DNA from: Candidatus Epulonipiscium sp.
GTDB taxonomy: Bacteria; Bacillota; Clostridia; Lachnospirales; Defluviitaleaceae
Assembly: GCA_012519205.1 (NCBI GenBank)
Contig: JAAYQR010000028.1
Location: 4,411-68,410 of the forward strand
Reading direction: 5' to 3'
DNA length: 64,000 nucleotides
Positions 1 through 35,691 of the stretch are shown here, in pieces. A model generated the notes under the pieces. That model had not been told where the DNA came from, ran no database searches, and saw only the letters and a program-made list of their open reading frames with translations. How positions within the stretch are numbered: position 1 is the stretch's first letter; each line of letters begins with the position of its first letter. A program made the translations under genes and the position numbers.

Positions 1-334
1 CAAACACTTGTCCAAAGGCCCTAACATCTATCCATTCCTTGCATGCTGCCTCATATAATTTATCCTTATCTTTAAGAACATCTTTAGGTAGAGTCTTTTC
101 AGCTCGCTCTTTTAAACTTTTATACCCATCCATTTTATTATCATCTGATTGAACGAATACCCTTTTCCCATTTTGCATTAGCCTATTTCTTATTTTACGC
201 TTAATGCATACATCCGATATTTCACCTATACCGTCATAATTAATGCGTGGCCTGTTTCCATTTAAGGGATCACCATTGGGGTTTGCATTTTTCACACTAA
301 GAACCACTAAGAAATCATACTTATTATTTAACAT
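1..334 (-). CDS. cas7c: Cas7c (Csd2) type I-C backbone subunit, N-terminal part only; the gene runs off the left window edge
   Basis: Hand translation of the minus strand from ATG 334-332 gives MLNNKYDFLVVLSVKNANPNGDPLNGNRPRINYDGIGEISDVCIKRKIRNRLMQNGKRVFVQ... NANPNGDP is the Csd2/Cas7 N-terminal signature. The ATG overlaps the cas8c stop (AAATGTTAA). Absent from the ORF track because it is truncated by the window edge. Confidence 0.85.
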   Translation of the reverse strand, partial: MLNNKYDFLVVLSVKNANPNGDPLNGNRPRINYDGIGEISDVCIKRKIRNRLMQNGKRVFVQSDDNKMDGYKSLKERAEKTLPKDVLKDKDKLYEAACKEWIDVRAFGQVF

Positions 335-693
335 TTTACTTCCTCCTTTTTTCTTAATGCTGCACGTTGGCAGTGATAACCTAATAAAAATTCACCGGAT
401 AATGCTGTATCTTTTATGAAGTCTTCCGGTTCAAATAAATTCATTATTTCATCAATTAAGCTCTCCCTACTTTTACCTTTTCCTTTTAGTCTTGTGAAAG
501 ATGGTTTTAGCGCTAATTCGATTGCTTTCCATGTTGAAAATGGATACTGGGAAAACCTCTGCATTAATCTATCTGCATTTGTTAGTCGATTTTCATCATT
601 TGTATCCAATGCCCATCTTTCAACATTTTGAGCTATGGCTAATAGTCTGCCATATAGATAATCTCTACTTCGTCTTTCCTTATCCAGTGCCAT
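328..693 (-). CDS. cas11c: Candidate Cas11c small subunit, translated from an internal start within cas8c (121 aa, same frame)
   Basis: In-frame ATG at 693-691 is preceded by a perfect AAGGAGG (708-702) at 8-nt spacing inside the cas8c coding sequence. The product starts MALDKERRSRDYLYGRLLAIAQ. Internal translation of Cas11 from the cas8 3' end is reported for type I-C systems. Confidence 0.6.
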   Translation of the reverse strand: MALDKERRSRDYLYGRLLAIAQNVERWALDTNDENRLTNADRLMQRFSQYPFSTWKAIELALKPSFTRLKGKGKSRESLIDEIMNLFEPEDFIKDTALSGEFLLGYHCQRAALRKKEEVKC

Positions 694-2130
694 ACTTATT
701 TCCTCCTTCTTATAATCATAGCAATACTTTTTATATAATGCACAAGTGATACTAAGAGATTTGTCAAAATTCCATTGTTTTTCAAATGCAACCCTATTTA
801 CTGTTCTTCTAACGGAATTCTGAACTAAATCTAAAGGTATCTTTTGTCCATCCGTGATACAAGTTAAAATTCTATCTATCACCTGCATTTTAACTTTTGT
901 ATTAACTTGCTTTCCCTCGCCAAAAATTGTATTTGCGATATCCATAGGGGCCGGAGCTCCAACGAATACATGAGGTTTTTTATAATGATGAATCCAATTG
1001 CAGGTTGTATGCCACTTTTCTAATTTGTCGATAAAATCTTCGGGATTCATTTCCTGATAATATGTAATGGATAATCTTCCATCGGTAACTGATTCGAGAC
1101 TCATTAATACAACGTGATCAAGTTCATCTAGTTTTGAATTGTATCCACGTAATTTCATATTAATTTTATTGGCAACTTCTTCCCCTGTATAAGTAACTGC
1201 ATTTTCACTTCCTTGATCTTCCCCACTTAGTAAATCAAAAGTATCATAAAAAATATTAGCAATTTCTACCTTAGATGTTCTCCAGCAAATAATCGTTTTT
1301 TTACCATTATTATATCCTTGCTTTGATATTAGCCACTTCACGGCATTATGGGCCTTTTGAGAAACTTCGTAACTTACCCCATAACTTTGAGTGGAATTTA
1401 GAAATCTTCCTCTGTAAGTAAATCCGTTAGAATCATTAGAACTTATTATTTTTGCATTAGCACACTTATTATATATGTTTTTAGGATGATTTATAGCAGT
1501 GGGTAAATGCTTGCCTAATACTTGGCAAAAGCCTTTTGATGTCAATGAAGAACTATAATATTTTTCCCAACTCTTAAAAAGACTAATATCCCTCCATACA
1601 CGACTTTCTTTTATATCTATTTGTTCAACACACCATCTTATAAAATCATCATTATTTTCCACATTCCCTTTATCATCCAAGGTATATACCTTTGCATTTA
1701 TCAAGTTTTCTATAAGAGTTCCTTTTTTTACATATTCATAAATGGCTTTTACCTTCCCATGGGTATCATTGGATACTGCCCATTGATATAAGTTTTTGCA
1801 GTAATCTTCATATCCATGCCATTTTTCGCCTCCATATTTCTTATAATCCCCAGCTAGATATTGTACCTTATCACATAATGGATGTGGAACTGGATATTTA
1901 CCTGCTCTACCACCTGATTCTTCTGTGCAAGGTATAATTATGCTAGGGCTATCCTTATCTAAGATATGGGCTCTTAAAAAATTACCCTTTCCATCAATAA
2001 CCACTTCAATCTGCGCCTGTACAATAGTATGATATATGGGCAGTAGAGGAGTTGTATCTTCACTTTCTATAACTCCTACTTGTGAAATATTATTTTCATA
2101 TGTATCATAAAGTCTTTGAATCCAACTCAT
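328..2130 (-). CDS. cas8c: Cas8c (Csd1) type I-C large subunit
   Basis: The 600-aa ORF lies between cas5c and cas7c in the canonical I-C order. The N-terminus MSWIQRLYDTYENN is Csd1-like. I prefer ATG 2130 (GAGGAGG 6 nt upstream) over the track start 2145, which lies inside that SD. Confidence 0.85.
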   Translation of the reverse strand: MSWIQRLYDTYENNISQVGVIESEDTTPLLPIYHTIVQAQIEVVIDGKGNFLRAHILDKDSPSIIIPCTEESGGRAGKYPVPHPLCDKVQYLAGDYKKYGGEKWHGYEDYCKNLYQWAVSNDTHGKVKAIYEYVKKGTLIENLINAKVYTLDDKGNVENNDDFIRWCVEQIDIKESRVWRDISLFKSWEKYYSSSLTSKGFCQVLGKHLPTAINHPKNIYNKCANAKIISSNDSNGFTYRGRFLNSTQSYGVSYEVSQKAHNAVKWLISKQGYNNGKKTIICWRTSKVEIANIFYDTFDLLSGEDQGSENAVTYTGEEVANKINMKLRGYNSKLDELDHVVLMSLESVTDGRLSITYYQEMNPEDFIDKLEKWHTTCNWIHHYKKPHVFVGAPAPMDIANTIFGEGKQVNTKVKMQVIDRILTCITDGQKIPLDLVQNSVRRTVNRVAFEKQWNFDKSLSITCALYKKYCYDYKKEEISMALDKERRSRDYLYGRLLAIAQNVERWALDTNDENRLTNADRLMQRFSQYPFSTWKAIELALKPSFTRLKGKGKSRESLIDEIMNLFEPEDFIKDTALSGEFLLGYHCQRAALRKKEEVKC

Positions 2131-2839
2131 ACCCCGCCTCCTCATACCCTTCTAGTAGCCTTGGCTCACTTATTCCGACTGTACTAATCTGCTCAAAATC
2201 CATTTCTTTAATAATCTTTGGTGTAGTATCTACGAAATCCATTGAAAACATAATAACACCATCTTTCATTATCGGTTTCCAAAAATATGCCTTTAAATTG
2301 TTTTCTCCGGATTCACTTGGGTAATCAAATTTATAAAACATTCTGTCAAACCGTAGTTCTCCATAATTATCATAAAACCCCTTCTTCGCGCCATATACTA
2401 CAGGTTCTACATATGCCTGACATTCTCTTGTTCCAAGAAAAACATCTCGTCTGCCTCCTTTTTCAATCATTCTCTTCGCTACAAAGAAATGTTTATTTTC
2501 ATTCCTATCTACTTCTAAATCCGTTCTATTAAGATTCCATTCAAAATGGGCTCTTACTTCGTATTCAACATCGCTTAAGTATGTATAATATGAAAGGGTA
2601 TTTCCTCCATTGTAATTAATGGGTCTAATACCTTGGCTCTGGGTTCTGATAGGATTCATTACCCGAATCTCATCAATAATCCAGTGAAATGTCGGTTTCC
2701 AATATATGCTTTCACATATTCCCTTTAATGCTTGATAAGTCGGAATTTGATATGTGAACTTTTCTCCCCCAACACGGGTTATGGAATCAGTAAAAAGAGC
2801 GTACCTTCCATAAATTTTAAACTCAACTTGATTTCTCAT
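2105..2839 (-). CDS. cas5c: Cas5c (Cas5d) type I-C pre-crRNA endoribonuclease / Cascade subunit
   Basis: 244 aa. N-terminus MRNQVEFKIYGRYALFTDSITRVGGEKFTYQIPTYQALKGICESIYWKP is typical of Cas5d. Sits between cas3 and cas8c. Confidence 0.88.
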   Translation of the reverse strand: MRNQVEFKIYGRYALFTDSITRVGGEKFTYQIPTYQALKGICESIYWKPTFHWIIDEIRVMNPIRTQSQGIRPINYNGGNTLSYYTYLSDVEYEVRAHFEWNLNRTDLEVDRNENKHFFVAKRMIEKGGRRDVFLGTRECQAYVEPVVYGAKKGFYDNYGELRFDRMFYKFDYPSESGENNLKAYFWKPIMKDGVIMFSMDFVDTTPKIIKEMDFEQISTVGISEPRLLEGYEEAGYELDSKTL

Positions 2840-2848
2840 AATCTCCTC

Positions 2849-5293
2849 CTATAAAATTGTGGCTTCTACAGCTTTTGATTCCATTAGTAAACCATAAGCA
2901 TCATCATAATAGGCCTCTGATAAATAATAGATTCCTGAATTCTTTTGAGTTTCATATATGGCTTCCATTTTACATAGGGCCTCAATTTGATAATGAAATA
3001 AATTAACCGAATGTCTTTGAGCTAACTTAAGATATGCGTACCCCTGTTCTAGGTAATACATGGCACATAAACCTGATATTATTTCTTTACTTTCATTGTT
3101 ATATGGAACAATAATGCCTTGGGTATATGTATCGATGGCTCTATAATTTTTAGCTGCTGTATCAAAAGCCTGTGTAAGGGTAATATGGGTGGCTTGTTTT
3201 CTATACTTAGCTGCCTCTATAGACTTTTCATTTATTGATAATAAGTTAAATATGTTATCTTGAACTCCCTCCTTCAATTTCACCAAATAAGGCATTCCCT
3301 CTTTTCTTTTGAAAAAGTAATACTCATAATATTTTTCTAAAGCTTTAGGACTAAGTAAATCATTATCAAACCTATCCGGTAAAACTCTATATTCTTCTAG
3401 AATCCGCTCCGTTACTTCTTTTCCCTTTAGAATATCCGTTAATCGAGATAACTTTTCATCTTTTGGATTAACTATGTAGACTTTTCCCTTATCTTTCATG
3501 AAACCATTTCTATTGCATCGACCTGCAGCCTGGACTATGGAATCTAACCCTGCCAAGTATCGAATAACTACATCAAAATCTATATTTATCCCCGCTTCCA
3601 TTAATTGTGTACTTACACAAATGATTGGTTCTGCCGTCCCATCCCTTGCCCGTTTAAGTTTATCAATCATTTCATTCAAACGCTCCATACGGTGAATAGG
3701 GCACATGCTTGTACTTAAATGATATACATTTTTAGAGTATTTATTTAATATTTTAGTGACTTTCATAGCAGAATTCTTTGTATTAACAATTATTAAAACA
3801 CTTTTTCCTTCTTTTACTTTATTTAAAACAAATTCTACTATTTCTTCGTTCTCCCATCCTCCAGTTTTTGTAAGATCTTCTGTAATAGTTCTTGAAAATT
3901 CTTTGTATAAGTTATTTGTGTTTTTAATGATTCTGTTCTTACTGTGGATATTTAATGCATAGGATTTAGGCTCAATTCTATCTAGAAGTGGTTGAGTGGC
4001 TGTACATAATACTATGGATGAGTGACATATTTCTTTTAGAAACTGCATGGCCATATTGAATAAATAAATAAATTTTACTCCTAATGTTTGTATTTCATCA
4101 AAAATTATTATGGAATTAGCCAATTGATGCATTCTTCTAACACTTCTTGTCCCTCCTGCAAATAACGTATCTAATAATTGCACCATAGAAGTAAAAATAA
4201 TGGGAGCATCCCAATTCTCTGATAATAATTTTGTTGTAGGCGTTTCTTCATCCTCAGTCAAGTTAGAGTGATGTTCTAAAACAACAGTTCCAAATTCCTC
4301 ATTAGTTTCTAAGATATCTCTAATTTCTTGAGCATTTTGATCAATAATCGTATTAAAGGGCACCACATATATAATTCTATCCATTTTATTTTCTTTGGCA
4401 TGGTGAAGTGCAAATCGCAGACTAGATAAGGTCTTTCCTCCACCTGTTGGAACTGTAAGTTGAAAAATATCATTATTAGCTTTCGCCGCAATTTTACAAC
4501 TATTAGATATCTCTGTTCTTAAACTATCTATCTTATTACGAATCTGAAATTTAGAAATATAATTTTCTAATCTTTCTATTAGAGTTGTCCAATCTATATA
4601 TTCACTATTTAAACGTCTCGTCTTCCCCATTGGCATTTGAAAGTCTGCGGTATCTTGCCTATCTGCATCTATCAAACAACTAAATAAATACTTTATAAGT
4701 AGACCAAACATATAAAAAGTTGTTTTATCGTCTTTAAATTTCTTTATACGGTCAAGATTATTCTTAAGCGGTGTAACTAAATCTTCATTAGTTAATTTAT
4801 CAATTAGAGATTTTAATTCATCATCCAAATTATTTACTGCCTCTATTAATCTCTCAATTGTTTCAGCCTTCTGCATTTTTTCATGTAGTAAGTTATTCCC
4901 ATCAGGAGTTAGACAGTCAATCAATCCCCCATGATGTGATTTAATTATTAATGATATAATGGACCTAATCCTTTCATCTATTTTTTCCAATTGATATATG
5001 TATTGTGCTCCTATTGATGAGTGATCTACTTTTCCCTTCCATTGGATGGGCTCCATATAATTTTTATCACCCTTATCTAATAATGCAGTTTGTGATTTTA
5101 TATATGAATTAAATAATTCTGTTTGTTTCCCTAAATCATGTAGTAGCCCTATTAATTCCCCCCATGATTTCATGCCAACTTTATTAGCATATTTCCCAGC
5201 TAGACGAGATGTTTCAATTAAGTGCTCTTTTACAGTCTGAATCACATCATCTTCTTTCCTATAATGCGCAATAAATATTTCATTTGAACTCAC
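2849..5293 (-). CDS. cas3: Cas3 HD nuclease / SF2 helicase (type I signature protein)
   Basis: N-terminal HD motifs HDLGK, SHHGG and IDADR. Helicase motif I PTGGGKT and motif II FDEIQ. 814 aa. GTG start at 5293 with GGAGGGAGG upstream. Confidence 0.93.
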   Translation of the reverse strand: MSSNEIFIAHYRKEDDVIQTVKEHLIETSRLAGKYANKVGMKSWGELIGLLHDLGKQTELFNSYIKSQTALLDKGDKNYMEPIQWKGKVDHSSIGAQYIYQLEKIDERIRSIISLIIKSHHGGLIDCLTPDGNNLLHEKMQKAETIERLIEAVNNLDDELKSLIDKLTNEDLVTPLKNNLDRIKKFKDDKTTFYMFGLLIKYLFSCLIDADRQDTADFQMPMGKTRRLNSEYIDWTTLIERLENYISKFQIRNKIDSLRTEISNSCKIAAKANNDIFQLTVPTGGGKTLSSLRFALHHAKENKMDRIIYVVPFNTIIDQNAQEIRDILETNEEFGTVVLEHHSNLTEDEETPTTKLLSENWDAPIIFTSMVQLLDTLFAGGTRSVRRMHQLANSIIIFDEIQTLGVKFIYLFNMAMQFLKEICHSSIVLCTATQPLLDRIEPKSYALNIHSKNRIIKNTNNLYKEFSRTITEDLTKTGGWENEEIVEFVLNKVKEGKSVLIIVNTKNSAMKVTKILNKYSKNVYHLSTSMCPIHRMERLNEMIDKLKRARDGTAEPIICVSTQLMEAGINIDFDVVIRYLAGLDSIVQAAGRCNRNGFMKDKGKVYIVNPKDEKLSRLTDILKGKEVTERILEEYRVLPDRFDNDLLSPKALEKYYEYYFFKRKEGMPYLVKLKEGVQDNIFNLLSINEKSIEAAKYRKQATHITLTQAFDTAAKNYRAIDTYTQGIIVPYNNESKEIISGLCAMYYLEQGYAYLKLAQRHSVNLFHYQIEALCKMEAIYETQKNSGIYYLSEAYYDDAYGLLMESKAVEATIL

Positions 5294-12033: not shown

Positions 12034-12154
12034 TATTTCACTCCTTTTACATGGATAGATAGTTATGGGATTCCATGCGGATTTTGTGGTTTATAATGTT
12101 AAATTAGTTGAGGTGATTATGCAAGAATGGTGGTGGCTATATTAGGTATTTATG

Positions 12155-13742: not shown

Positions 13743-15665
13743 CTATTTGCCTGCAACTACATTGGCTTTTAATACGATTTGATTGTTATATTTATATCCC
13801 CTGTTCATGGTCTTGATGATTTCACCCTTTTCAAATCCTTCTTTTACTTCAGCCATCAGAACTTCATGTTCTTTCCCATTAAATTTTTCATGGGTCTTAG
13901 GGTTTATAAATTCAACTTTAAATTCCTCTAGCAGGTTTTCTAGTTTTAGGGTAAGGGCATCAATATTTTCTACATAAGAAGCTACTACCTCTTCATTTTC
14001 ATTTCTAAGTCTAGATACCGAATAGTTTATTATTTCTTCATAGGTGCTCATTTCAAAAAACAGATGCTCCCTAAGATACTTTATCATTTTTTTATTAGCT
14101 TCATTTTTAATTTTTTCTACTTTTCTTCCTAGCCTTTCCATAAGGGCATCATAGCCCTCTTTGATTTCATTATCTAAAAATGCTCCTTTTTGTGTTAGAA
14201 CATCCTCTATAGGGGTATCATACTTGCTAATAAATTTATTGTATATTTCTAAGTCGATTTTTTCGTATTCTTTTTCTATCACAATAGGATCCAACTCTTT
14301 TTTTACATATTCCTCAAATTGATTGATTGTACTCTGGTATAACTCTAGGCTTTCCCTTAGGCTTTCAATTTTTATAGAAATTGTTTCAGAGATTCCTTCT
14401 ATTATAGGGGTATACTCAGCTTCTTCCGGTATATCCTTGTATAATTCCTGATTTTTATTAAACTCTAGAAAAAAATCTACTATTCTTTCTCCGGCTTCTT
14501 TGTTTATATATAAATTTTCGACTATTTCCTTTAGTAGAGCCCCTGGGTTGAACTTTTCTATATATATCTTTAAAAGTTCCTCCTTCAAGGAGCCCCATTT
14601 TTCGGTAAAGTCATTAAAATTATCAATAAACTCTAAGGGCTCTTCGGTTTTGAGCCTAAGCTTCTTTCTTACGGTGATGTCATTAATATACAATCTCATT
14701 CCTTGAAACTTCAGGTAGTTTTCAAATCCCTCTTTATCAAGTAATATTATTTTGTTAGGCTCTTTTTCTGCCTCTTTAAAGAAATCCTCTAACTCTTCGA
14801 TTTCTTTTCCTAAATGCTGATAGGCCTCCCTTATGGTATGTAGAATTTCTTGGATTATTTGCTGTTCACTACTTTCGTACTGCTCTATTTTCATTTCTTC
14901 TTCCAAGGCATTCACTTGAATCTTAATAATTGCCTCCACATTATCTTTTTCTTGTTTTATGGATTCATAGTAAAAATTGGCAGCCTTTCTTAAATGAAAA
15001 TCGTTAAGCCTTTTTATACCCTTCTCTGACCTTTTTGTATAACATTTATAAAGAGGTTCACTCATTTCTTCAATCAATAAGAGATATAATTCTCTTATGA
15101 ATTCTAGTTGTGAATCTTCACCTTTATAGATGTCCATTAATCTATTTCTTGAATTTATTAAAGTTGGGCCTATTTTATAATTAAGCCATAGCTTTTCCAG
15201 TTCATCTAACTGATTTAAGATATTTATCTTTTGTTCTGTAACAAATTTATCCTTTTCTATTTTAATTGGATTGATATTAGCCTTAGGGTCGGCTATTCCC
15301 TGATTTGCCAGCTGGCTTTCTTTAAATTGCTTAAGCTGCGACAAAAGTACGGTGCATATTCCAATCAATATTTCTTTTGCTTTTCCCGTTTTTATGTTTT
15401 CCTCATTATCATAAAATAAGTAGATTGTCCTTTGATAATGATGCATTAAGTGATCAAAGTATTCAAATATCCGCTCATCATATTTGGATAATTTATTTTC
15501 CTCAGTAAGATGATTAAGTATTCTAAGCATTACCTTCATTTTGATATGAAAAAAACATCCCTTTATACTTTGTTCAGTAAATTCATCGAAAGCCTGAAGG
15601 GTTTTTCTCCAGGCTTCGATTAATTCCTTTGACTTTAGCAAAATAGGGGGATACTCCTTAAACAT
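13743..15665 (-). CDS. 640-aa helical / coiled-coil protein ending in a GrpE-like nucleotide-exchange domain
   Basis: The C-terminal 60 aa, KVEFINPKTHEKFNGKEHEVLMAEVKEGFEKGEIIKTMNRGYKYNNQIVLKANVVAGK, align by eye with the GrpE beta domain (F-D/N-P-x-x-H-x-A ... QKGY-x-L-x-x-R-x-x-R-x-A-x-V-x-V). The preceding ~570 aa are E/K-rich helical sequence. Confidence 0.7.
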   Translation of the reverse strand: MFKEYPPILLKSKELIEAWRKTLQAFDEFTEQSIKGCFFHIKMKVMLRILNHLTEENKLSKYDERIFEYFDHLMHHYQRTIYLFYDNEENIKTGKAKEILIGICTVLLSQLKQFKESQLANQGIADPKANINPIKIEKDKFVTEQKINILNQLDELEKLWLNYKIGPTLINSRNRLMDIYKGEDSQLEFIRELYLLLIEEMSEPLYKCYTKRSEKGIKRLNDFHLRKAANFYYESIKQEKDNVEAIIKIQVNALEEEMKIEQYESSEQQIIQEILHTIREAYQHLGKEIEELEDFFKEAEKEPNKIILLDKEGFENYLKFQGMRLYINDITVRKKLRLKTEEPLEFIDNFNDFTEKWGSLKEELLKIYIEKFNPGALLKEIVENLYINKEAGERIVDFFLEFNKNQELYKDIPEEAEYTPIIEGISETISIKIESLRESLELYQSTINQFEEYVKKELDPIVIEKEYEKIDLEIYNKFISKYDTPIEDVLTQKGAFLDNEIKEGYDALMERLGRKVEKIKNEANKKMIKYLREHLFFEMSTYEEIINYSVSRLRNENEEVVASYVENIDALTLKLENLLEEFKVEFINPKTHEKFNGKEHEVLMAEVKEGFEKGEIIKTMNRGYKYNNQIVLKANVVAGK

Positions 15666-15692: not shown

Positions 15693-17378
15693 TTAGTATA
15701 AGTCGTCTACAGATAGCTCCGTCTCTACTCCACTAGTACTCATGCTTTTAGCCATTACCTTAAGCATATTGTCCTGTCCTATATGAAAGATTACTTTTAC
15801 CTTTTCTTCTCCCTTTGCCTTAGACGGGATACCCCTTAGGCTCGTTCCTGCAAGGCGTTTCATACCATCTTCCATTACATAGGAAGCTTTCTTTTCTTCA
15901 CTAGAGGGTCTCATGTTTTCATAAACAACTATTGCCATACTGGTTACATTGTCAAAATTAGTAACCAAAAGTTCCGCCGCCTCTATAGTAAGACCCTCCT
16001 CAGGAATATCTACACCACTTTTTACAATCTCCATAAATCTTCTACCTGATATTTCGAGCCCTAAAGGGTGAATGGTCTTTTCTTGAACAATAGGTCCCTT
16101 TACCGTAGGCATCATAATCATATTGCAGTAATGGGCTGCCCCTTGAGAAATACTTAGGGCGGGACTAATTTTTGATTTAAAGGGTTCTTTTCCAAACTTT
16201 TCTTTTATTTTCTCCCTTATTCTAGGAATCGCAGAGGAACCTCCCACTAAGAATGTTTCATCAATATCTCTAGCTTCTAAGGAGGCAGCTCTTAGACATT
16301 CATCAATACACTCAATACTTCTTTCTATTAAGTCTTCTACCGATTTCCCTTCTAGTTTACTAAATACTTCATCGGAATCCCCTAACTGGTTGATTCTTTT
16401 ATGGTTTAAAAAGGCATCCTTTGTAATTTCCATATTGATATTAATAATTTTAGGTTCCTGGATAAATGGAGCTAAAACAACTTTGGTGGATTTAGCCGAT
16501 GAAAGTCTTTCCTTAGCTTGGTTAGCTACTTGGGCAAGGCGAACTAAAGCTGTTGTTTTTTGCCGTTTTGATGCACCATCATCAGCGTTTAAATCAAATA
16601 GATTAATTTCCTCATTAGTCATTTTTTTAAATTCTTCATAAACCATATCTATTATTATTTTATCTACGTCATTTCCACCTAGATAATTGTCACCAAAGGT
16701 ACTTAGTATAGATATAGAGGGTTCATCGGTATCTGTCATCCTTATATCCAGAACACAAGCATCAAAGGTTCCGCCCCCAAAATCATAAACCAATACCTTT
16801 TTATTTTTTCTTTCGTTGACTGCATATGAAATTGCTGCAGCTGCCGGTTCTAATCTAAGGTATATGTTATCTTCATCAAAACCTGCTAGTTTTGCGGCTT
16901 CTTTTGTCATTTTCTTTTGTTTATCCGTTGAATTGGCAGGAACGGTTATTACGCAGCCTGAGAATTCTCCTGCTATATTTAGTTCCTCTTGAGCATATTC
17001 ATCAGCTTTTTGCTTAAGATACCCTAATATCTCCCCAGTCACCTGCTCGGGAGTAAATTCATACTCTTTATCATCTACCACTATTTTTACTTTTTCTTCA
17101 CTTCCTAGAAGGCGCTTTATCGATAAAACTGTACTTTGCGGATAAATTATAGCTGCTTCTTTTGCCTGTATCCCAAAAATCCTAGATAGTTTATCAGGAT
17201 CATCGGGATCCGTTTCGAATTGTACCGCCGTTGGGAAAACATTGCTTCCATCAATGGGTATGGTTTGTACTTGTCCTTCTTTAAAGTCATACACACTTAC
17301 TACTGAGTTTGTTGTTCCAAAGTCGATTCCTAAAAACAATCCTCTTTCTACATCTAATCCTAGTGTTCCCACAAGCAA
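15693..17378 (-). CDS. Hsp70-family ATPase paralog, lidless (about 560 aa)
   Basis: Motifs IDFGTTNSVVS, VYDFGGGTFDACVL and LVGGSSAIPRI. SBD-beta-like LRGIPSKAKGEEKVKVIFHIGQDNMLKVMAKS. The track start is TTG 17378. GTG 17372 has better spacing to the AGGAGG at 17387-17381. Confidence 0.85.
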   Translation of the reverse strand: MLVGTLGLDVERGLFLGIDFGTTNSVVSVYDFKEGQVQTIPIDGSNVFPTAVQFETDPDDPDKLSRIFGIQAKEAAIIYPQSTVLSIKRLLGSEEKVKIVVDDKEYEFTPEQVTGEILGYLKQKADEYAQEELNIAGEFSGCVITVPANSTDKQKKMTKEAAKLAGFDEDNIYLRLEPAAAAISYAVNERKNKKVLVYDFGGGTFDACVLDIRMTDTDEPSISILSTFGDNYLGGNDVDKIIIDMVYEEFKKMTNEEINLFDLNADDGASKRQKTTALVRLAQVANQAKERLSSAKSTKVVLAPFIQEPKIININMEITKDAFLNHKRINQLGDSDEVFSKLEGKSVEDLIERSIECIDECLRAASLEARDIDETFLVGGSSAIPRIREKIKEKFGKEPFKSKISPALSISQGAAHYCNMIMMPTVKGPIVQEKTIHPLGLEISGRRFMEIVKSGVDIPEEGLTIEAAELLVTNFDNVTSMAIVVYENMRPSSEEKKASYVMEDGMKRLAGTSLRGIPSKAKGEEKVKVIFHIGQDNMLKVMAKSMSTSGVETELSVDDLY

Positions 17379-17387
17379 TTCCTCCTT

Positions 17388-20090
17388 TTATAATAACCAC
17401 CCTACATTATTCTTTTGGTTCTCGCAAATCATTTCATCAAGTATTGACTCAACCTTATCAAATTCTAAATCATGGCTATAAATACTCGCATTGTTTAATT
17501 TTTCGTAAACCTCTTTTGGATTGCCCCTTAGTTTTTTGCAGTTATGGTTATACATTTTGACTTCCGTAAGGATAATATTGTCTTCCTTATCGATTTCTTC
17601 AATATAGTATTCCATACTTTCATTAAAAAACAAAGAAACACAAATTCCATATAAGCCAAAAGCTATAGGATACATTTTCTTTTTATTCAAGGGAAAACCT
17701 TGAATTTTATAACAAAAATAGACTTCCTTCCCCTTCTTAGTATAATGGGTAAAGGGGGTATTCTGTTCTACATACGAAAAATACGGAAATTTGTCTTGTT
17801 TTTCTTTAATAATTGGAAAAATAAATTGATTTCTTTTCATCCATTTAAAAATGGGTAGTATTGTTTCATTTTTTATTTCTATATTCATTGGGATATTTGC
17901 GTAAATATGAATAAGAGATGATCCTAATAGCATATCTTGAGTAAGTTCAAAGTTTTTTTCTAGTTTTTCTAGGGTTTTTGGTGTAACCATCTTCCCATTT
18001 ATCAAAATTTCATAGCTGCAATATAGGATAAAGTCATTTGCCATGGTGGGTTCTTTTTCATATATGTTTTGAAAAGCTTCTTCTAGTTCTTCATTCAAAT
18101 CTCTAATCCAAATCCCCTTTTGCAATATTTTTTTATCTATATCGTAGGTTGGCTTTTCTAGGAGTTTTATCATATGCCTTAAGGCATACCATTCTCCCAT
18201 ACTTCCTTTATAATTCTTAAGAACATAATCTAAAATAACTTCATCGTATTTTCTTTCTAAAATAAGATTATATGCAATCCCTGCAATATATGAATTCTCT
18301 ATGTTTAACTCTATTCCCTTTTTTACTAGTTTAAACTTTGTATCATCCCCTAATGAATCCGAGCCTTGCGCCCAAAATATTGCCTTAGTTACATCTCCCC
18401 CTTCTATTAACGCATTTATTCCGTATTCTATCTGATACGGGTATAAATCCTGTAAATCTAGAGGTTTAAAGTATGGGAATGCCTTTTCTTGTTCTTTATT
18501 AAAACTATAAAGTGTTCCTAAGGAAGCTGATATTTTTTTCCTGAAGGTATCGGACAATGCGCTATTTTCTAAGCATTCCCCCATTATCCTTACAGCCTTT
18601 ATCAAAGATAGATTTCCCATGTTTTTTGGCATTTCATTTATAAAGTATTTAGTAAGTCTAATTAGAAGGCTTGCACTCCTATAGCCTTCATCATAATACT
18701 TTAATAATAAATCTACGGGCACATCTTTAACTAATTTATTCACCCGTATTAAGTCTTTAGGATAAATGCCCTTCTGCCTCTGACCTATACAAAGAATAGT
18801 CAGCTCATCTTTTTCATGGGCAACTGCTTCTATATAAAGTATCTTTTTATCGACTATATATGTAGCCGTTGTTTCTTTTTCGCTTTCGATAACCCATATA
18901 TATTTAATTAAGGGAGATTCTACATAGACTTCATATGTAAAAAGCTGCTCAAATATTGCTTTTTTAAATAAGTTATCGTTTTCGTTTTTCTCTAGTAATC
19001 GCATATATATATCAATATAGTATTTTCCTTGTTTGTTTGCTCTTAAGGCATTTTCCCCAAAGGCAAGAATCTTATTGTAATGAATTTGAAAAAGCATCCT
19101 ATGCTGCTCATCCTTGCATAAGATTGAGTATATATAGGCAGTTAGAGATTCATTAAATTGCTCCTTAAGCATTGCTGATTGTAAAATTGATGTAGGAATT
19201 TTTACCATATCTAGCTTATGAGCTGTTTCTATATATGCCAAATGAACTCCCTTAACATAAAATTTTAAATCTATTATTGCCTCAAATACCTTAAAGGCTT
19301 CCTTATCCCTCTTATTTTCTTTTATATAGGTTGCACATAATAGTACCAAGGCCTCGCTAATACCCCATCTATTATACATTTTTTCTATATAGTCCTTGGG
19401 AATATTGAGGCTTTCTTGATTTTGATTTGCCCAGCTTATAAATAACTTTGCATTTTCCTTATCCAAAACCTCATATTTTATTGCCCATATAAAAACAGCC
19501 CTGACCATATCCTTCATATTATAAAAATAAGTGAAATCAAGACAAAGCAACCGGTATACCTCTGAATATAAAAACGGGCTCCTTAAACCATTTAGAAAAG
19601 CCTTGTCATAATAATAGGCTTGGGTTTTTTCTTCATTAAAAAATTCTCTTTCTATCATGGCTTTTATAAAAAATAATATTCCGCTATTTTCTTCTTCTAA
19701 GCAATCATCAAATATCTTAAGAGACCTTTGTACAAACATATGTCTACCTTTATAATAATCTATCAATGCCTTAAAATAATATAGGATTGCCAAAATGGTT
19801 TTGTCGGTATCATGGTAATATTTTTTGTATTTGAGTAAAGCCTTAAGGGACTTATATGCCTCATCATATCTTTCTAGTTTTATTTTTAACCAAATAAGAC
19901 TTAAAGCAATCCTTATCTCTATTGGATTTTGTCTATTAAGTTCAGATACCAATAGTATCGAATCGTTATATTTCCCCATAAGTCCATAGCTTACTGCATT
20001 AAATAGTCTTACACGATAGGCGATACGATTTTGATTGGATTTGTCTTCCCACTTATCCATTAATGTCTGCATATATCCATTCATTTTCAT
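17388..20090 (-). CDS. 900-aa protein of unknown function, with an alpha-solenoid / TPR-like N-terminal region and a mixed C-terminal region
   Basis: Long uninterrupted ORF whose ATG overlaps the upstream stop (ATGA at 20087-20090). No signal peptide, TM segment or catalytic motif that I recognise. Helical repeat character, e.g. YDEAYKSLKALLKYKKYYHDTDKTILAILYYFKALIDYYKG. Confidence 0.55.
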   Translation of the reverse strand: MKMNGYMQTLMDKWEDKSNQNRIAYRVRLFNAVSYGLMGKYNDSILLVSELNRQNPIEIRIALSLIWLKIKLERYDEAYKSLKALLKYKKYYHDTDKTILAILYYFKALIDYYKGRHMFVQRSLKIFDDCLEEENSGILFFIKAMIEREFFNEEKTQAYYYDKAFLNGLRSPFLYSEVYRLLCLDFTYFYNMKDMVRAVFIWAIKYEVLDKENAKLFISWANQNQESLNIPKDYIEKMYNRWGISEALVLLCATYIKENKRDKEAFKVFEAIIDLKFYVKGVHLAYIETAHKLDMVKIPTSILQSAMLKEQFNESLTAYIYSILCKDEQHRMLFQIHYNKILAFGENALRANKQGKYYIDIYMRLLEKNENDNLFKKAIFEQLFTYEVYVESPLIKYIWVIESEKETTATYIVDKKILYIEAVAHEKDELTILCIGQRQKGIYPKDLIRVNKLVKDVPVDLLLKYYDEGYRSASLLIRLTKYFINEMPKNMGNLSLIKAVRIMGECLENSALSDTFRKKISASLGTLYSFNKEQEKAFPYFKPLDLQDLYPYQIEYGINALIEGGDVTKAIFWAQGSDSLGDDTKFKLVKKGIELNIENSYIAGIAYNLILERKYDEVILDYVLKNYKGSMGEWYALRHMIKLLEKPTYDIDKKILQKGIWIRDLNEELEEAFQNIYEKEPTMANDFILYCSYEILINGKMVTPKTLEKLEKNFELTQDMLLGSSLIHIYANIPMNIEIKNETILPIFKWMKRNQFIFPIIKEKQDKFPYFSYVEQNTPFTHYTKKGKEVYFCYKIQGFPLNKKKMYPIAFGLYGICVSLFFNESMEYYIEEIDKEDNIILTEVKMYNHNCKKLRGNPKEVYEKLNNASIYSHDLEFDKVESILDEMICENQKNNVGWLL

Positions 20091-21338: not shown

Positions 21339-21368
21339 ATTATATATCAATCTACTTTAATTTTCCAA
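21339..21368 (-). promoter_or_regulatory. Candidate sigma-A promoter of the multi-Hsp70 operon
   Basis: Minus strand reads TTGGAA (21368-21363), 18-nt spacer, TATAAT (21344-21339), about 30 nt upstream of the first gene. The context is AT-rich, so specificity is low. Confidence 0.3.
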
Positions 21369-22661: not shown

Positions 22662-23858
22662 TTATTTTCCTGAAATATAATCAATAAACTGGCGAGCCGT
22701 CCTTCCAGAGCGGCCATTATGCCACATTTCCCATTGTAGCGCTTTTTTTCGCAATTCTTCCCTTGGGATATCTATTTGATGTTTGGCCGCTAAACCCTCT
22801 ACTATTTTAAGGTATTCTTCCTGACTTGGGGATATATAAGTAATGCTTATGCCAAACCTATCTGCCAAGGATATCTTTTCTTGAACAGAATCAGAAATAT
22901 GTATTTCTTCAGTGTTTTGCCTATCATTCCACGTTTCTTTTATCAAATGTCTTCTATTAGATGTAGCATAGATTAAAACATTATCCGGTTTTTTCTCTAT
23001 ACCCCCTTCGATGACAGCTTTCATATGCTTATATTCTATTTCAAATTCTTCGAAGGATAAATCATCCATAAATATTATAAAATATCTATTCCTATTTCTA
23101 ATAAGGGATATTATTTTATTAAAATCAATAAGTTGATTTTTGTTTAATTCAATTAATCTAAGACCCCTGTGGGCATATTCATTTAAAAGAGCTTTAACAG
23201 AAGAAGATTTCCCTGTCCCCCTATCTCCAAATAACAAAACATTATTTGCACTTTTCCCTTCTAGAAAACCTTCTGTGTTTTCCTTTAAAATCTTTTTTTG
23301 TTCCTCATAGCCTATTAAATCCTTAAGTCTTATGTTGTCGGGATTTTCTATACCTTTTAATCCGTCTTCCCACCTAAATGCCCTATATTTCCCCATCATA
23401 CCGCAGCCATTTTCATAATAATACCGTGCCAATTTATTAATGATATCGTCTATGGCGATATTATCTTTTTGGGATGCATTTAAAAATGATAAGGGCTCTA
23501 TTTTAAGTTTGCTTGCTATTATATCCCAATCTATATGGGCAAATTCACTCAAAATTAACAAATCCCTTTTCACAACCATTTCTATTGCTGTATCCCTTTT
23601 ATTATTTTCTTTTTCACAGGAAAGACTAAAAATATTTTCATCCTCAATTACTAAATGAATTATATAATTTTTCCACAAAGAATCTCTTAAGTTATATTTA
23701 AAACCAAATTCAAGAAGCTGTGAGATAATTTCTGAAAAATCATTTTGTAATTTGGTACCATCCTTGTTTTGCTGTTTCAAATCCGTAATAAGTCTTTGGG
23801 TTGCACTTATTAGCTTATCCTCCAAAAGACTTCTATAAATCAATAAATTATTTATCAT
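22662..23858 (-). CDS. P-loop ATPase of the DUF815 (AAA-like) family
   Basis: 398 aa. Walker A LLFGDRGTGKSSSVKALL and Walker B-like YFIIFMDDLSF. Size and layout are typical of Firmicute DUF815 proteins. Confidence 0.65.
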   Translation of the reverse strand: MINNLLIYRSLLEDKLISATQRLITDLKQQNKDGTKLQNDFSEIISQLLEFGFKYNLRDSLWKNYIIHLVIEDENIFSLSCEKENNKRDTAIEMVVKRDLLILSEFAHIDWDIIASKLKIEPLSFLNASQKDNIAIDDIINKLARYYYENGCGMMGKYRAFRWEDGLKGIENPDNIRLKDLIGYEEQKKILKENTEGFLEGKSANNVLLFGDRGTGKSSSVKALLNEYAHRGLRLIELNKNQLIDFNKIISLIRNRNRYFIIFMDDLSFEEFEIEYKHMKAVIEGGIEKKPDNVLIYATSNRRHLIKETWNDRQNTEEIHISDSVQEKISLADRFGISITYISPSQEEYLKIVEGLAAKHQIDIPREELRKKALQWEMWHNGRSGRTARQFIDYISGK

Positions 23859-32175: not shown

Positions 32176-35100
32176 TTATAAGTTCCTAATAAACTGAAAT
32201 GTATTTAATAAATTTAGTTCTCCATACCCCCAGGATGTATCAGGGTATCTTCTTGATTCCCTCCTTGTTGCTCCTCTTATTAGATATGTTCTTACCTTTC
32301 TTGTTGTTAAGGTAGTATCATTTCCTTTTATAATTCCCCACTCTAAAAGAAGGGCTGCTGCCCCAGCAGCAATCGCCGCTGCAATGCTAGTTCCAGTCAT
32401 TTGCCCATATCCACCCCCAGAAAGAGGCCCCCTTACATTAACTCCCGGGGCAACTAAATCTGGTTTCATTTCGTCATCTCTTGTTCGGCCTCTACCTGAT
32501 GCACTGTATAAACTGTTATCTATAGGATTGTATGCTCCAACTGTTATTGTTCCCTTCCCACTTCCTGGAACAGTAACAGTAGTTTGCGGTACTGGTTTTA
32601 AAAAAACTGTATCTTTATCAATCCAGCCTTCTCTTGGAAGCCATACATTGTATCTTCCATCAACTATAAAATCTCCATGCAGGGTCACAATCCAGTTCCC
32701 CGGAGTAGGATCTTCGAATCGTATTCTAGTAAGTTGATCTCCTGTCCTTGGCTCTGGATATATATAATCTACTTTTACTCTGGTTTTTTCTAATATAAAT
32801 CGTATTTCTTCTTCTTCCCCAAATCTCGCAGGAATCCTTTCAATAAATTCTCCTGTAGGAGATATCATAGAGATAGACATTTTGTCAGGGGCATTATTCC
32901 ATATATATAAGATAAATCCCCTTTCTCCTTCTCCCACCTTTATTTCTATATCCTCTGTTTGGATGCCATCTAGGCTGCCACTCGTATGATGTAGTGTATT
33001 TGCTTCATTGCCTGCACTAGCAATCATTACAACGCCCCTTCTTCCACCTAATTCAGCCATATAAGTTTCTGTAAAAGAAGTACCATCATGCCCTCCTTCG
33101 TTACTCCCTATTCCCAAACTAATAACTACAGGCATATTCAAACTTCGTGCCGTCTCCACCACATATTTTAGTGCCATAATTACATCGGTACTTTGATATA
33201 CTGTGGTTTTAGGAGCTCCTATTAAGTTGTAATCCCTAAGATATTCCTTGGCTGCCTTTAGTTTTACAACTAAAAGATTAGAATCAGGGGCAGCCCCTAT
33301 AAACCCTTTATCGATTCTATCATATCCTGCTGATACCCCTGCTAAAAATGTTCCATGTCCCACTTCATCCCTATGGGGAACTATTTCCCCTGGATTTTTA
33401 CTTTGTAATGCATTATTTATTTCCTCTTCAGTGAATTCCGTTCCATAGTCAAAACCTTGTGGTGGATTGCCTTCTAAGGATTGATCCCATATTCTTAAAA
33501 TCCTAGTCGTATTGTCTTCATATAAAAATGCAGGATGAGCATAATCTATCCCTGAATCGATAACCCCGACTAATATCCCTTGGCCCCTTAACTCACCGTA
33601 GGGATAGTTATGAAACATAAGTATATCCGAAGCTTCCAAACTTCCATTGGCATAGTTCCCAAAAAGGAGAGGGATTGTGTACTGAACTATCTCCCTAGTT
33701 TCTTCAAAAAATTTTTCTTTTATGTCCCTAGGAATCTGTAAAATAGCATAATTTTCATTGATGATTTCCACATTGGCGGCACCATTTTGTAATGCTGCTT
33801 CAACTATATTTTCATTATACTCAACTATGAAATCTAGATATTCATCAGATATAATTGATTGTGGGTCCATGGCAGGAATATTCCCCTGCCTTAAATCTTC
33901 CATATTATTATCCAAGATTTGGCCTTTCATTCCTCTTATATCCCCCTGTCTTAACCCCTCAAATGAATTAGCCAAACATAAACTTCCATATCCCCAAGAA
34001 GGATTAGGATAATTTAAAAATGGCCATGTTCTCCTAGCACCCTTATATAAGTATGCCTTTAACCTCTCTCCATATAAAAATGGGTCATTTCCCTTAACTA
34101 TGCCCCATTCCATAAGCAGAGCTGCGGCCCCACTCCCATGGGGGGCTGCCATACTAGTTCCACTTAGCAAATCATATCCGCCTCCAGGGATGGGTGCCAT
34201 AATATTAATCCCCGGAGCCACCAGTTCTGGTTTAACAAATCTACTTCTTCTCGTATAACCCCTTCCAGAAAAGGGAGCAATTTGATTAGTTGTTCCATTA
34301 TATGCTCCAACACTTATCATCCGTTCTGCTGTTGAGGGTATTGTTAGGGTATGTTCTAGTTTAGGCTCCACAAATGCAGTTTGTCTACCTATTTCCTCCG
34401 TAATAGGAAGCCAAATGCTATATATTCCCTCAACAATACTAACCCCATACAAATTAAGCTGCCAAATACCATTGTCTATAAACTGATTTACAGAAATAAG
34501 GGCAATAAATATTTCCTCATCTCCATTTAAAGGAGAAGGTCCCCCAAAATAAGCCATAACTTCTGTACTTCCTATAATAATTCTTTGAACTCCTGCTTTA
34601 GGTGAAATTTTATTGGTACTTTCTCCATTGGGTGCTGTTACAGAAAATTCCATAGTATCTGCAAAAGACTTCCATAGGGTCAAAGTAAGACTTGTAAGCC
34701 CTTCATCGGCAATAAATTGTATGTTTTTTTCTTCACCTTCTTCTAATAATCCTCCCGTATGGTGACCCGTATCTCCTTCATTTCCTGTTGCCACAACAAT
34801 GGCACTCTTCCACCTATTTGCCATTTCATCCATATAAGTTTCTACTATTGAGTTACCGTCATGGGGCCCCTCATTGGTTCCAAAACTTATATTAATTGCT
34901 ATGGGCCTTGCCAGTTCCTCTGCTTTTTCTACTATATATTTAATAGCTCTCATAAGTTCGGTAGTTCTAGGAAAAGACTGAGTCCCTCTTCTTCCTAGCT
35001 TTACTATAATGAATTCTGACTCCGGAGCTACCCCCATATATTTTCCATTACTACCTCTCCCATTTCCTCCTGCTATACCTGCTACATGGGTTCCGTGGCC

Positions 35101-35691
35101 AATCTCATCCTTATGGGGCACCCTAGCTATCCTTTCCATTAAGGTGGAAAGGCTTAGAGCCTCATCGATATCCTTCCTCGTAAACTCAATTCCCCCGCTA
35201 AATCCCTGTGGCGGTTCCCCATTTAAGGTTTGATCCCATATATATAAAATACGGCTTTTTCCATCCCCGTTTATAAAATCAGGATGGGCATAATCTATGC
35301 CGGAATCAATAATTCCTAGAAGTACCCCTTGTCCTCTTAGATCATTCGGTGGCCTTTGTACGGCTGTAATGCAACTTTCCCTAAGGCTATTATTAAGGTT
35401 AATCCCTAATCTTTTAGGTCTTTCAATGTATTCAACCTGGCTATAATCCGATAACTTTGGGATTTTACTTTCCTCTAAGGTTAAAATTCCATATCCTTGG
35501 GTTAATATTTCTACTCCTGCCTCTAATTGTCTCCCTACTTCACTTAAATCTCCATGGTATTTTACTATTACCTCCCAAGTATTAGATTCTGCATTAAACC
35601 CAGTATTAAAATCCTGTGCCTTTACTCTTTCTTCTTCATCCATATTTAGTAACAACTCTAATCCATTATCTATTTTATTATCAGAAGGCAT
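32176..35691 (-). CDS. cspBA: Tandem two-domain subtilisin-like (S8) germination protease, CspBA-like fusion
   Basis: 1171 aa. Domain 1: IIDSGIDYAHPDF, GHGTHVAGIAGG, SGTSMAAPHGSGAAALL. Domain 2: VIDSGIDYAHPAF, GHGTFLAGVSAG, TGTSIAAAIAAGAAALL. Each domain is preceded by a Csp-type prodomain (YGILTLEE... / YAILQIPR...). sleC lies 1.4 kb away. Confidence 0.8.
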   Translation of the reverse strand: MPSDNKIDNGLELLLNMDEEERVKAQDFNTGFNAESNTWEVIVKYHGDLSEVGRQLEAGVEILTQGYGILTLEESKIPKLSDYSQVEYIERPKRLGINLNNSLRESCITAVQRPPNDLRGQGVLLGIIDSGIDYAHPDFINGDGKSRILYIWDQTLNGEPPQGFSGGIEFTRKDIDEALSLSTLMERIARVPHKDEIGHGTHVAGIAGGNGRGSNGKYMGVAPESEFIIVKLGRRGTQSFPRTTELMRAIKYIVEKAEELARPIAINISFGTNEGPHDGNSIVETYMDEMANRWKSAIVVATGNEGDTGHHTGGLLEEGEEKNIQFIADEGLTSLTLTLWKSFADTMEFSVTAPNGESTNKISPKAGVQRIIIGSTEVMAYFGGPSPLNGDEEIFIALISVNQFIDNGIWQLNLYGVSIVEGIYSIWLPITEEIGRQTAFVEPKLEHTLTIPSTAERMISVGAYNGTTNQIAPFSGRGYTRRSRFVKPELVAPGINIMAPIPGGGYDLLSGTSMAAPHGSGAAALLMEWGIVKGNDPFLYGERLKAYLYKGARRTWPFLNYPNPSWGYGSLCLANSFEGLRQGDIRGMKGQILDNNMEDLRQGNIPAMDPQSIISDEYLDFIVEYNENIVEAALQNGAANVEIINENYAILQIPRDIKEKFFEETREIVQYTIPLLFGNYANGSLEASDILMFHNYPYGELRGQGILVGVIDSGIDYAHPAFLYEDNTTRILRIWDQSLEGNPPQGFDYGTEFTEEEINNALQSKNPGEIVPHRDEVGHGTFLAGVSAGYDRIDKGFIGAAPDSNLLVVKLKAAKEYLRDYNLIGAPKTTVYQSTDVIMALKYVVETARSLNMPVVISLGIGSNEGGHDGTSFTETYMAELGGRRGVVMIASAGNEANTLHHTSGSLDGIQTEDIEIKVGEGERGFILYIWNNAPDKMSISMISPTGEFIERIPARFGEEEEIRFILEKTRVKVDYIYPEPRTGDQLTRIRFEDPTPGNWIVTLHGDFIVDGRYNVWLPREGWIDKDTVFLKPVPQTTVTVPGSGKGTITVGAYNPIDNSLYSASGRGRTRDDEMKPDLVAPGVNVRGPLSGGGYGQMTGTSIAAAIAAGAAALLLEWGIIKGNDTTLTTRKVRTYLIRGATRRESRRYPDTSWGYGELNLLNTFQFIRNL

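Follow-up and report, generated by a model that had tools for sequence, protein, structure and literature searches.

The 64,000-nucleotide stretch analysed here (the window; contig JAAYQR010000028.1 of assembly GCA_012519205.1, positions 4,411 to 68,410) comes from Candidatus Epulonipiscium sp. of the Defluviitaleaceae and carries eight closely spaced minus-strand genes running from 21310 to 7142. The fourth of these, GrpE-long, encodes a protein that joins a long, all-helical N-terminal extension to a C-terminal GrpE module, and it lies among genes for Hsp70-like proteins. An earlier reading of the letters (the original prediction) had placed a 640-residue protein here, and one open reading frame (ORF) on the minus strand indeed encodes it: 640 codons plus a stop fill 13743..15665, and the plus-strand translation of the interval is riddled with stops. 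The start is an ATG at 15665, preceded by a strong ribosome-binding site, the Shine-Dalgarno sequence AGAGGAGG at 15679-15672. The gene is spaced 27 nt from the stop of its upstream neighbour and 16 nt on the other side. Its translation ends exactly in FNGKEHEVLMAEVKEGFEKGEIIKTMNRGYKYNNQIVLKANVVAGK, so that the original prediction cited the protein's actual C-terminus. An identical NCBI record (P0001) is titled 'MAG: nucleotide exchange factor GrpE [Epulopiscium sp.]', MAG denoting a metagenome-assembled genome. The GrpE label is already in NCBI and Pfam; no published description of the architecture or the operon was found, and full-text searching turned up no account either of a GrpE with ~600 residues or of the DUF5716/DUF5717 pair.

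By sequence comparison and structural modelling, the C-terminal ~145 residues of GrpE-long are a genuine GrpE module comprising the stalk end, the short helical domain and the beta-wing. The Pfam GrpE model (PF01025) matches residues 507-637 along profile positions 39-162 of 165; its score of 46.4 bits (E=4.4e-12) lies well above the gathering cut-off, 25.8 bits, and 36 of 37 diverse family members match the same model. A profile of the last 165 residues, built from 24 relatives, finds the PDB chains of Geobacillus GrpE (4ani_A, E=8.4e-5) and E. coli GrpE (1dkg_A, E=2.9e-3, E. coli residues 61-193), with the beta-wing aligned to the Geobacillus segment FDPYLHQA...GYKLKDRVLRP. A phmmer search of PDB with whole GrpE-long returned de novo designed helical proteins only, the GrpE chains requiring the family profile. 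The AlphaFold2 (AF2) model was built from an alignment of 18 relatives (mean predicted local distance difference test score, pLDDT, 83.6; predicted template modelling score, pTM, 0.60). In its C-terminal part a 60-residue helix (495-554) and a 23-residue helix (559-581), which align to E. coli GrpE residues 61-137, are followed by six strands (584-639) with a pLDDT of about 90. When PDB was searched with this model by Foldseek, the top nine hits were GrpE or GrpEL1 chains, each with a probability of 1.00. The GrpE assignment is sound because the PF01025 score exceeds its cut-off, the profile matches 4ani_A and 1dkg_A, and AF2 and Foldseek agree. These matches, the profile comparison among them, bear out the GrpE beta-domain pattern that had been recognised at the C-terminus. 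The GrpE part had been equated with the beta domain; the beta-wing is there, but the homology also takes in the short helical domain and the stalk end (~495-583).

Nowhere is the family more conserved than in this module. Over 148 representatives, the beta-wing and short-helix columns reach a conservation of 0.6-0.8, against 0.1-0.4 across most of the N-terminal region. The short alpha-helical domain carries the motif LLFE.ST.EEI..YSVSRLR, and the beta-wing the motifs P.PH..FN.KEHEVL.AEK, F.KGEIIK, GY and RANVIAAK. Canonical GrpE is a protein of ~180-220 residues in which a disordered N-terminus is combined with stalk, bundle and beta-wing, and it works as a homodimer that engages a single Hsp70 asymmetrically and speeds up ADP release. 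GrpE-long shares the stalk end, the short alpha-helical domain and the beta-wing with the GrpE of E. coli (1DKG) and Geobacillus (4ANI) and with GrpEL1 (9BLS/9BLT), and the patterns F(D/N)xxxHE and GY...R(P/A)xV are recognisable in GrpE-long and canonical GrpE alike. In contrast, its pre-bundle stalk is shorter than the canonical one, at only ~35 residues, and its 640 residues include ~490 that are predicted to form ordered helices where the canonical N-terminus is disordered.

Because the GrpE homology exceeds the beta domain, the true extension comprises residues 1-494, or 77 % of GrpE-long, not the 90 % originally proposed. In the AF2 model it is all-alpha (~85 % helical) and split into 13 helices with short loops between them; 12 of these are 22-49 residues long, and they are probably arranged as elongated antiparallel bundles. 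The pLDDT falls below 50 only at residues 1-4, every 10-residue block stays at or above 50 and most exceed 70, so that residues 5-494 are predicted as ordered helices. Over residues 1-570 the composition is rich in E (15 %), K (11 %) and L (11 %), as had been noted, and also in I (11 %). Coiled-coil character was estimated with a crude home-made heptad score, on which GCN4 and tropomyosin reach 22-24, the E. coli GrpE stalk reaches ~15 and the 95th percentile of shuffled sequences lies at 13.5. Since 149 residues out of the first 583 lie above the 95 % shuffle level, the earlier description of the protein as about 90 percent coiled-coil extension is overstated: the region is mostly helical, but it consists of 13 separate helices, and strongly heptad-like sequence is confined to two ~40-residue segments, 264-308 and 421-461. 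Weakly heptad-like stretches at 499-532 and 555-583 correspond to the helices of the GrpE module.

The extension is not low-complexity filler. One N-terminal architecture is shared across the family representatives, with conserved islands at residues 63-66 (DE.I), 102-109 (GI..VL.S), 132-138 (NP...EK), 221-255 (ND...R...E.L..II..Q..ALE), 275-283 (L..L.E.YQ) and 421-438 (I..GI.ET..IK.ESL.E). Among 37 relatives, the N-terminal region contains no recurrent Pfam domain. Internal repeats, whether spectrin-like or derived from duplicated GrpE stalks, were rejected after hhalign comparison of six segments gave probabilities below 12 %. A natural PDB homologue of this part was likewise sought with the full-length family profile, which matched only the designed three-helix bundle 4tql (E=1.2e-4); this match does not reflect homology because the similarity is compositional. 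Foldseek found no natural fold match for the N-terminal region, with BAR- and ClyA-like structures appearing at E>0.8. The coordinates of GrpE-long, its parts and the other operon genes are collected in Table 1.

Table 1. Genes of the operon, parts of GrpE-long and the candidate promoter, in window coordinates
Feature	Position	Strand	Evidence
Gene 1, DUF5717 N-part, 407 aa	20087..21310	-	Pfam DUF5717_N, positions 8-292
Gene 2, DUF5717 middle and C part, 900 aa	17388..20090	-	Pfam DUF5717_N and DUF5717
Gene 3, Hsp70a (H70a), 561 aa	15693..17378	-	Pfam HSP70, E=1e-71
Gene 4, GrpE-long, 640 aa	13743..15665	-	ORF list, ATG start, Shine-Dalgarno AGAGGAGG; Pfam PF01025
All-helical N-terminal extension, residues 1-494	14184..15665	-	AF2; conservation over 148 representatives
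GrpE-homologous module, residues 495-640	13746..14183	-	Pfam, profile alignment, Foldseek; most conserved family part
Stalk-helix end, residues 495-530
Short alpha-helical domain, residues 531-581
Beta-wing, residues 584-640	13746..13916	-	Six strands (AF2); column conservation 0.6-0.8
Gene 5, H70b, DUF5716 Hsp70-like, 523 aa	12155..13726	-	DUF5716_C 100 bits, HSP70 65 bits
Gene 6, Hsp70c (H70c), lid-less, 546 aa	10393..12033	-	Pfam; catalytic residues intact
Gene 7, Hsp70d-vWA, 692 aa	8318..10396	-	Pfam HSP70 (E=3e-93), VWA_4, VWA
Gene 8 (last), TPR protein, 390 aa	7142..8314	-	Pfam TPR families; conserved ~100-aa N-terminal domain
Candidate operon promoter, TTGGAA-18-TATAAT	21339..21368	-	Consensus scan; ~30 nt upstream of first gene

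The original prediction had located GrpE-long between Hsp70 paralogues, and this holds: the operon encodes four Hsp70-like proteins, and two of their genes, H70a and H70b, flank it directly. The same position, between H70a and the DUF5716 pseudo-Hsp70, recurs in 67 species-level genomes wherever the contig reaches. When the eight proteins were searched by tblastn against the 67 loci, gene order and orientation were unchanged, without rearrangement, wherever the contig was long enough. The full eight-gene operon was recovered in 19 of these genomes, and an independent metagenomic contig (L069) shows the identical order. A promoter and terminator scan of the region gave counts not above chance, with a single plausible site, before the first gene. 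The gap of 121 nt between the DUF5716 gene and Hsp70c (12034-12154) could hold an internal promoter or regulatory element; the other gaps in the operon are at most 27 nt or are overlaps.

The four Hsp70-like proteins were aligned to an E. coli DnaK sequence, which was verified against PDB chains (residues 1-614 collinear). Hsp70a, Hsp70c and Hsp70d retain D8, T11, T12, N13, K70, R71, E171, D194, G198, T199 and D201 (DnaK numbering). H70b lacks T12, N13, K70, R71, E171, G198, T199 and D201 and keeps a C-terminal domain resembling the beta-sandwich substrate-binding domain (SBD-beta). Having lost eight catalytic-site residues, it is a pseudo-ATPase, and by its sequence it cannot cycle nucleotide normally. 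The four nucleotide-binding domains (NBDs) that had been named as partners of GrpE-long thus correspond to four Hsp70-like proteins, but one of these, H70b, is catalytically degenerate. All four chains stop where the beta-sandwich substrate-binding domain ends and hence lack an alpha-helical lid; in Hsp70d a von Willebrand factor A (vWA) domain takes the lid's place. The VLLLD linker is present in none of the four, the position of D393 being E, V, Q or L and that of R151 being K, K, I or R. Pfam found no J domain in the eight operon proteins, and the one HPD tripeptide they contain lies inside Hsp70c as a chance occurrence. The vWA domain of Hsp70d (residues ~505-660) starts with a MIDAS-like (metal ion-dependent adhesion site) DTTGS, which is found in all 14 of 20 Hsp70d orthologues whose sampled stretch covered the position; for the remaining six, sampled short of it, a different D.[ST].[ST] match or no match came back.

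At the C-terminus of Hsp70a (window 15693-15720, minus strand), the tail ...TELSVD(E/D)LY hardly varies across loci L002-L069. The variants are TKLSVDELY at three loci, TELAVDELY at one and TELSIDELY at one, and the tail is followed by at most two residues in 20 of 20 complete operons. Conserved tails are also found on Hsp70c (FDPSRFNKTV.EG) and Hsp70d (DILDNIA.SI.EL.RL).

The GrpE-long family appears to be confined to Defluviitaleaceae-like anaerobic Clostridia. When 1.84 billion representatives were searched exhaustively with a profile, 245 clusters (50 % identity) came out at E<=1e-30, with lengths mostly about 470-757 aa among the matches listed. Cultured relatives carry the protein, with 61 % identity in Defluviitalea raffinosedens and 57 % in D. 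phaphyphila. The 67 genomes, from a one-genome-per-species collection, are nearly all Defluviitaleaceae or unclassified Clostridia/Eubacteriales MAGs, many of them from termite guts and digesters; the scan that found them was pattern-based and probably under-counts. A cluster look-up of ten distant family members gave almost no taxonomy outside Defluviitaleaceae, and a second word-indexed homologue search, run with a diverse alignment, brought in no proteins beyond those already found.

The NCBI name 'nucleotide exchange factor GrpE' would suit an ordinary housekeeping GrpE that carries a lineage-specific N-terminal extension and also serves the general DnaK. The NCBIfam GrpE equivalog models, however, score GrpE-long at only 13-27 bits (best 27.4) against cut-offs of 137-266, and the lid-less Hsp70 neighbours reach 209-346 bits against the 648-bit DnaK cut-off and are also far below the HscA cut-off. 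The operon Hsp70s and GrpE-long are thus not the housekeeping set, given how far they fall below the DnaK and GrpE equivalog cut-offs. The gene also lacks an hrcA-grpE-dnaK-dnaJ context, and its family is apparently restricted to the lineage described above. A housekeeping role is therefore highly improbable.

The operon proteins evolve at different rates. Across the loci, identity to the window proteins is 64-88 % for Hsp70a, c and d (Hsp70a 69-88 %, Hsp70c 64-88 %), 24-62 % for GrpE-long, 30-76 % for DUF5716, 21-52 % for DUF5717 and 25-66 % for the TPR (tetratricopeptide repeat) protein. Among 20 complete operons, Hsp70a, c and d have mean pairwise distances of 0.22-0.24; the two parts of GrpE-long reach 0.53 (C-part) and 0.75 (N-part), and the remaining proteins 0.61-0.71. 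Within the operon, evolution is slowest in the three catalytically intact Hsp70s and the GrpE beta-wing, a pairing that fits a conserved interface between NBDs and GrpE. The locus itself looks like a vertically inherited chromosomal one, not a mobile island, because the divergent upstream aminotransferase is kept even beside distant operons (26-32 % GrpE identity) and the GC content of the operon is uniform with its flanks.

This inheritance bears on the possibility that the operon encodes a conflict system, an NTP-dependent anti-phage or anti-invader device whose effector would be regulated by thresholding via Hsp70, GrpE, vWA and TPR components. The GAP1-N2 GTPase systems of actinobacteria and firmicutes hold HSP70, GrpE, SBD-less HSP70 and TPR- or DnaJ-fused proteins (Kaur et al. 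2020, PMC7159879), and the window operon resembles them as a firmicute operon with HSP70, GrpE, a degenerate second HSP70 and TPR proteins. The vWA fusion, the fast-evolving accessory proteins beside conserved ATPases, and type I-C cas genes 2-7 kb downstream of the operon would also fit such a role. Unlike the GAP1-N2 systems, however, the window operon has no GAP1-N2 GTPase, FNIII, DnaJ or effector domain; Pfam on the eight proteins finds no GTPase, nuclease, protease, pore-forming or other effector domain, and PADLOC gave weak, sub-significant matches only. The GAP1-N2 systems are also patchy in distribution, whereas the window operon is vertical and lineage-wide, with constant order in 67 genomes of one lineage, a retained aminotransferase neighbour and uniform GC content. 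The related minimal module at locus L068 sits among housekeeping genes. A conflict system is, on this evidence, a decidedly improbable reading of the locus. CoCoNuT, a type IV restriction system with Hsp70-like domains and coiled coils, was considered and rejected, as it contains no GrpE and there is no McrBC here.

The proteins that surround the Hsp70s have features of scaffolds. The 900-aa DUF5717 protein is predicted by AF2 (pLDDT 82.6) to form a long TPR-like alpha-solenoid with two small beta-sandwiches, and its Foldseek matches are Ski3, Ctr9, Naa15 and TPR subunits of IFT-A and APC/C (E 1e-8 to 1e-5). The two DUF5717 ORFs of the window (407 and 900 aa) overlap by ATGA at 20087-20090, and DUF5717 is one ~1300-aa chain in D. 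saccharophila and several metagenomic relatives (P0182-P0185). A minimal module at L068 (5205-10839) consists of a DUF5717 protein (1188 aa), a DUF5716_C protein (400 aa) and a 270-aa protein whose N-terminus is clearly homologous to that of the window TPR protein. Neither an active Hsp70 nor a GrpE belongs to this module, which is located among RNase J, ylbF, yceG and peptidase U32 genes. The DUF5716 protein is common to the window operon and the minimal DUF5717/DUF5716 module. From the minimal module we infer that the Defluviitaleaceae operon grew out of a core that is more widespread: DUF5716 would have gained Hsp70a and GrpE-long as neighbours on one side and Hsp70c and Hsp70d-vWA on the other. 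The module also suggests that the core function is older than the Hsp70/GrpE additions.

On the basis of its sequence and genomic setting, we consider it fairly probable that GrpE-long is a divergent GrpE member that acts as the dedicated exchange subunit of a chaperone-like machine, specific to this lineage, that the eight-gene operon encodes. In one or more of Hsp70a, c and d, the beta-wing and the short helical domain would bind between NBD lobes IB and IIB, and opening of the NBD by the GrpE module would release ADP, as in 1DKG, 4ANI and 9BLS. In canonical complexes, the GrpE stalk contacts the interdomain linker and the second beta-wing contacts the lid (2025 review, PMC12987570). These contacts are impossible here because the partners have neither lid nor VLLLD linker, and for this reason the mode of action would not be fully canonical. 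The ~490-residue helical extension may substitute for the missing stalk-linker and wing-lid contacts. As an elongated bundle standing in for the usual disordered N-terminus, it could dimerise via the two heptad-like segments and dock the exchange factor on the fast-evolving non-ATPase parts of the operon (the pseudo-Hsp70, DUF5717 and the TPR protein). Such docking would confine nucleotide exchange to the assembled complex. A thermosensor role for the helical region finds no support in these data.

The conservation of individual contact positions gives a mixed picture. K82, F86, P151 and R183 of E. coli GrpE are taken here to be the contacts with the DnaK NBD in 1DKG. In the hidden Markov model (HMM) alignment, which is uncertain in its helical part, the family consensus has K and F/Y where K82 and F86 align, and the equivalent of R186 is kept as R or K within RANV. 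Several observations weigh against a dedicated exchange role. The position of P151 is Gly, Ala or Pro in the family and that of R183 is variable (N/Q in the window protein), so the interface may differ. Mirror-tree partial correlations between the two halves of GrpE-long and the operon proteins single out no clear partner (0.0-0.5). Dimerisation of GrpE-long is assumed by analogy. In addition, the more widespread minimal module works without GrpE or active Hsp70.

Bacterial Hsp70 cycles are thought to require a J-protein, an interdomain linker and a lid. The partners of GrpE-long have no J-protein, lid or canonical linker, which makes a normal Hsp70 cycle doubtful, and GrpE-long could instead be mainly a helical scaffold whose GrpE-derived handle holds one NBD open and nucleotide-free, without a role in catalytic cycling. 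The non-GrpE helical structure that makes up 77 % of the protein, with its own conserved motifs, would agree with such a tether, as would the lack of conservation at the R183 equivalent and an operon rich in scaffold proteins. Yet in all known cases binding of GrpE to the NBD and release of nucleotide are thermodynamically coupled (PMC12987570), so that docking of GrpE should entail exchange. Strong purifying selection on the full catalytic set in three partner NBDs also indicates that ATP turnover matters. We therefore regard a mainly structural tether as unlikely and favour the dedicated exchange subunit.

Published precedent exists for such an exchange subunit. In Myxococcus xanthus, a second GrpE, MXAN_6672, is encoded in a bicistron with DnaK2 (MXAN_6671) and is reported to be an ordinary GrpE homologue (PMC11019930). 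GrpE-long resembles MXAN_6672 as a GrpE paralogue adjoining, and apparently dedicated to, a non-housekeeping Hsp70. Unlike the Myxococcus pair, however, the window operon combines four lid-less Hsp70-like proteins with TPR scaffolds, a vWA fusion and a 490-residue extension, and it has no J-protein. It differs from canonical GrpE systems in its context without hrcA, dnaK or dnaJ, in the unconserved R183 equivalent and in partners without lid or linker (PMC12987570).

The operon also invites comparison with eukaryotic chaperone networks, in which its features have analogues. The ribosome-associated complex (RAC) pairs the pseudo-Hsp70 Ssz1 with Zuotin and Ssb, and the TPR clamps of Hop and CHIP bind the EEVD tail. 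Similarly, the window operon combines a degenerate Hsp70 with active Hsp70s and encodes TPR proteins next to an Hsp70 with the acidic tail LSVD(E/D)LY. The Hsp70a tail resembles the EEVD-COOH of eukaryotic Hsp70 and Hsp90, and two TPR proteins are encoded beside it. In contrast to the RAC and TPR networks, no J-domain protein is present, and the parallel is one of analogy, with homology seen only in the Hsp70 and TPR folds. A more far-reaching proposal, which we regard as possible but doubtful, sees in the products of all eight genes one stable multi-Hsp70 machine that works without a J-protein. On Ski3/Ctr9-like TPR scaffolds it would carry the three active lid-less Hsp70s together with the pseudo-Hsp70, with GrpE-long as an integral component whose helical arm places the exchange module and couples several Hsp70 ATPase cycles, and the VD(E/D)LY tail of Hsp70a would sit in a TPR clamp as EEVD does. 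Such a machine would be a bacterial chaperone architecture without a described counterpart.

More generally, the eight genes have the appearance of a dedicated chaperone machine, so far undescribed, that belongs to one family of anaerobic Clostridia; apart from the domain identities and the synteny, this functional account is one that we infer. GrpE-long breaks the textbook uniformity of GrpE with a large, ordered and conserved extension. It is constantly linked to three intact Hsp70s that lack J-protein, linker and lid, as well as to a pseudo-Hsp70, a vWA fusion and giant TPR scaffolds. If these proteins cooperate, the operon would be a natural experiment on wiring nucleotide exchange into a multi-Hsp70 assembly and would show what Hsp70 can do without a lid or J-protein. 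It could also provide a route to the function of the widespread, uncharacterised DUF5716/DUF5717 pair.

The genes flanking the operon are ordinary ones, namely msrB, an oxidoreductase, type I-C cas genes, ABC transporters, a Csp germination protease and sbcCD. The type I-C cas genes lie at 328-5293 on the minus strand, just downstream of msrB and the oxidoreductase and ~2 kb from the operon end, and comprise cas3 (HD and helicase), cas5d and csd1/cas8c. On the other side, beyond the upstream aminotransferase, a minus-strand gene at 22662-23858 encodes a DUF815 AAA-type ATPase (348 bits) with a weak nSTAND3 match, which is also found in L002. Further along the minus strand, 32176-35691 encodes a 1171-aa protein with a CspB prodomain and several subtilase stretches, similar to the CspBA fusions of Clostridia; this CspBA-like protease points to a spore-forming host.

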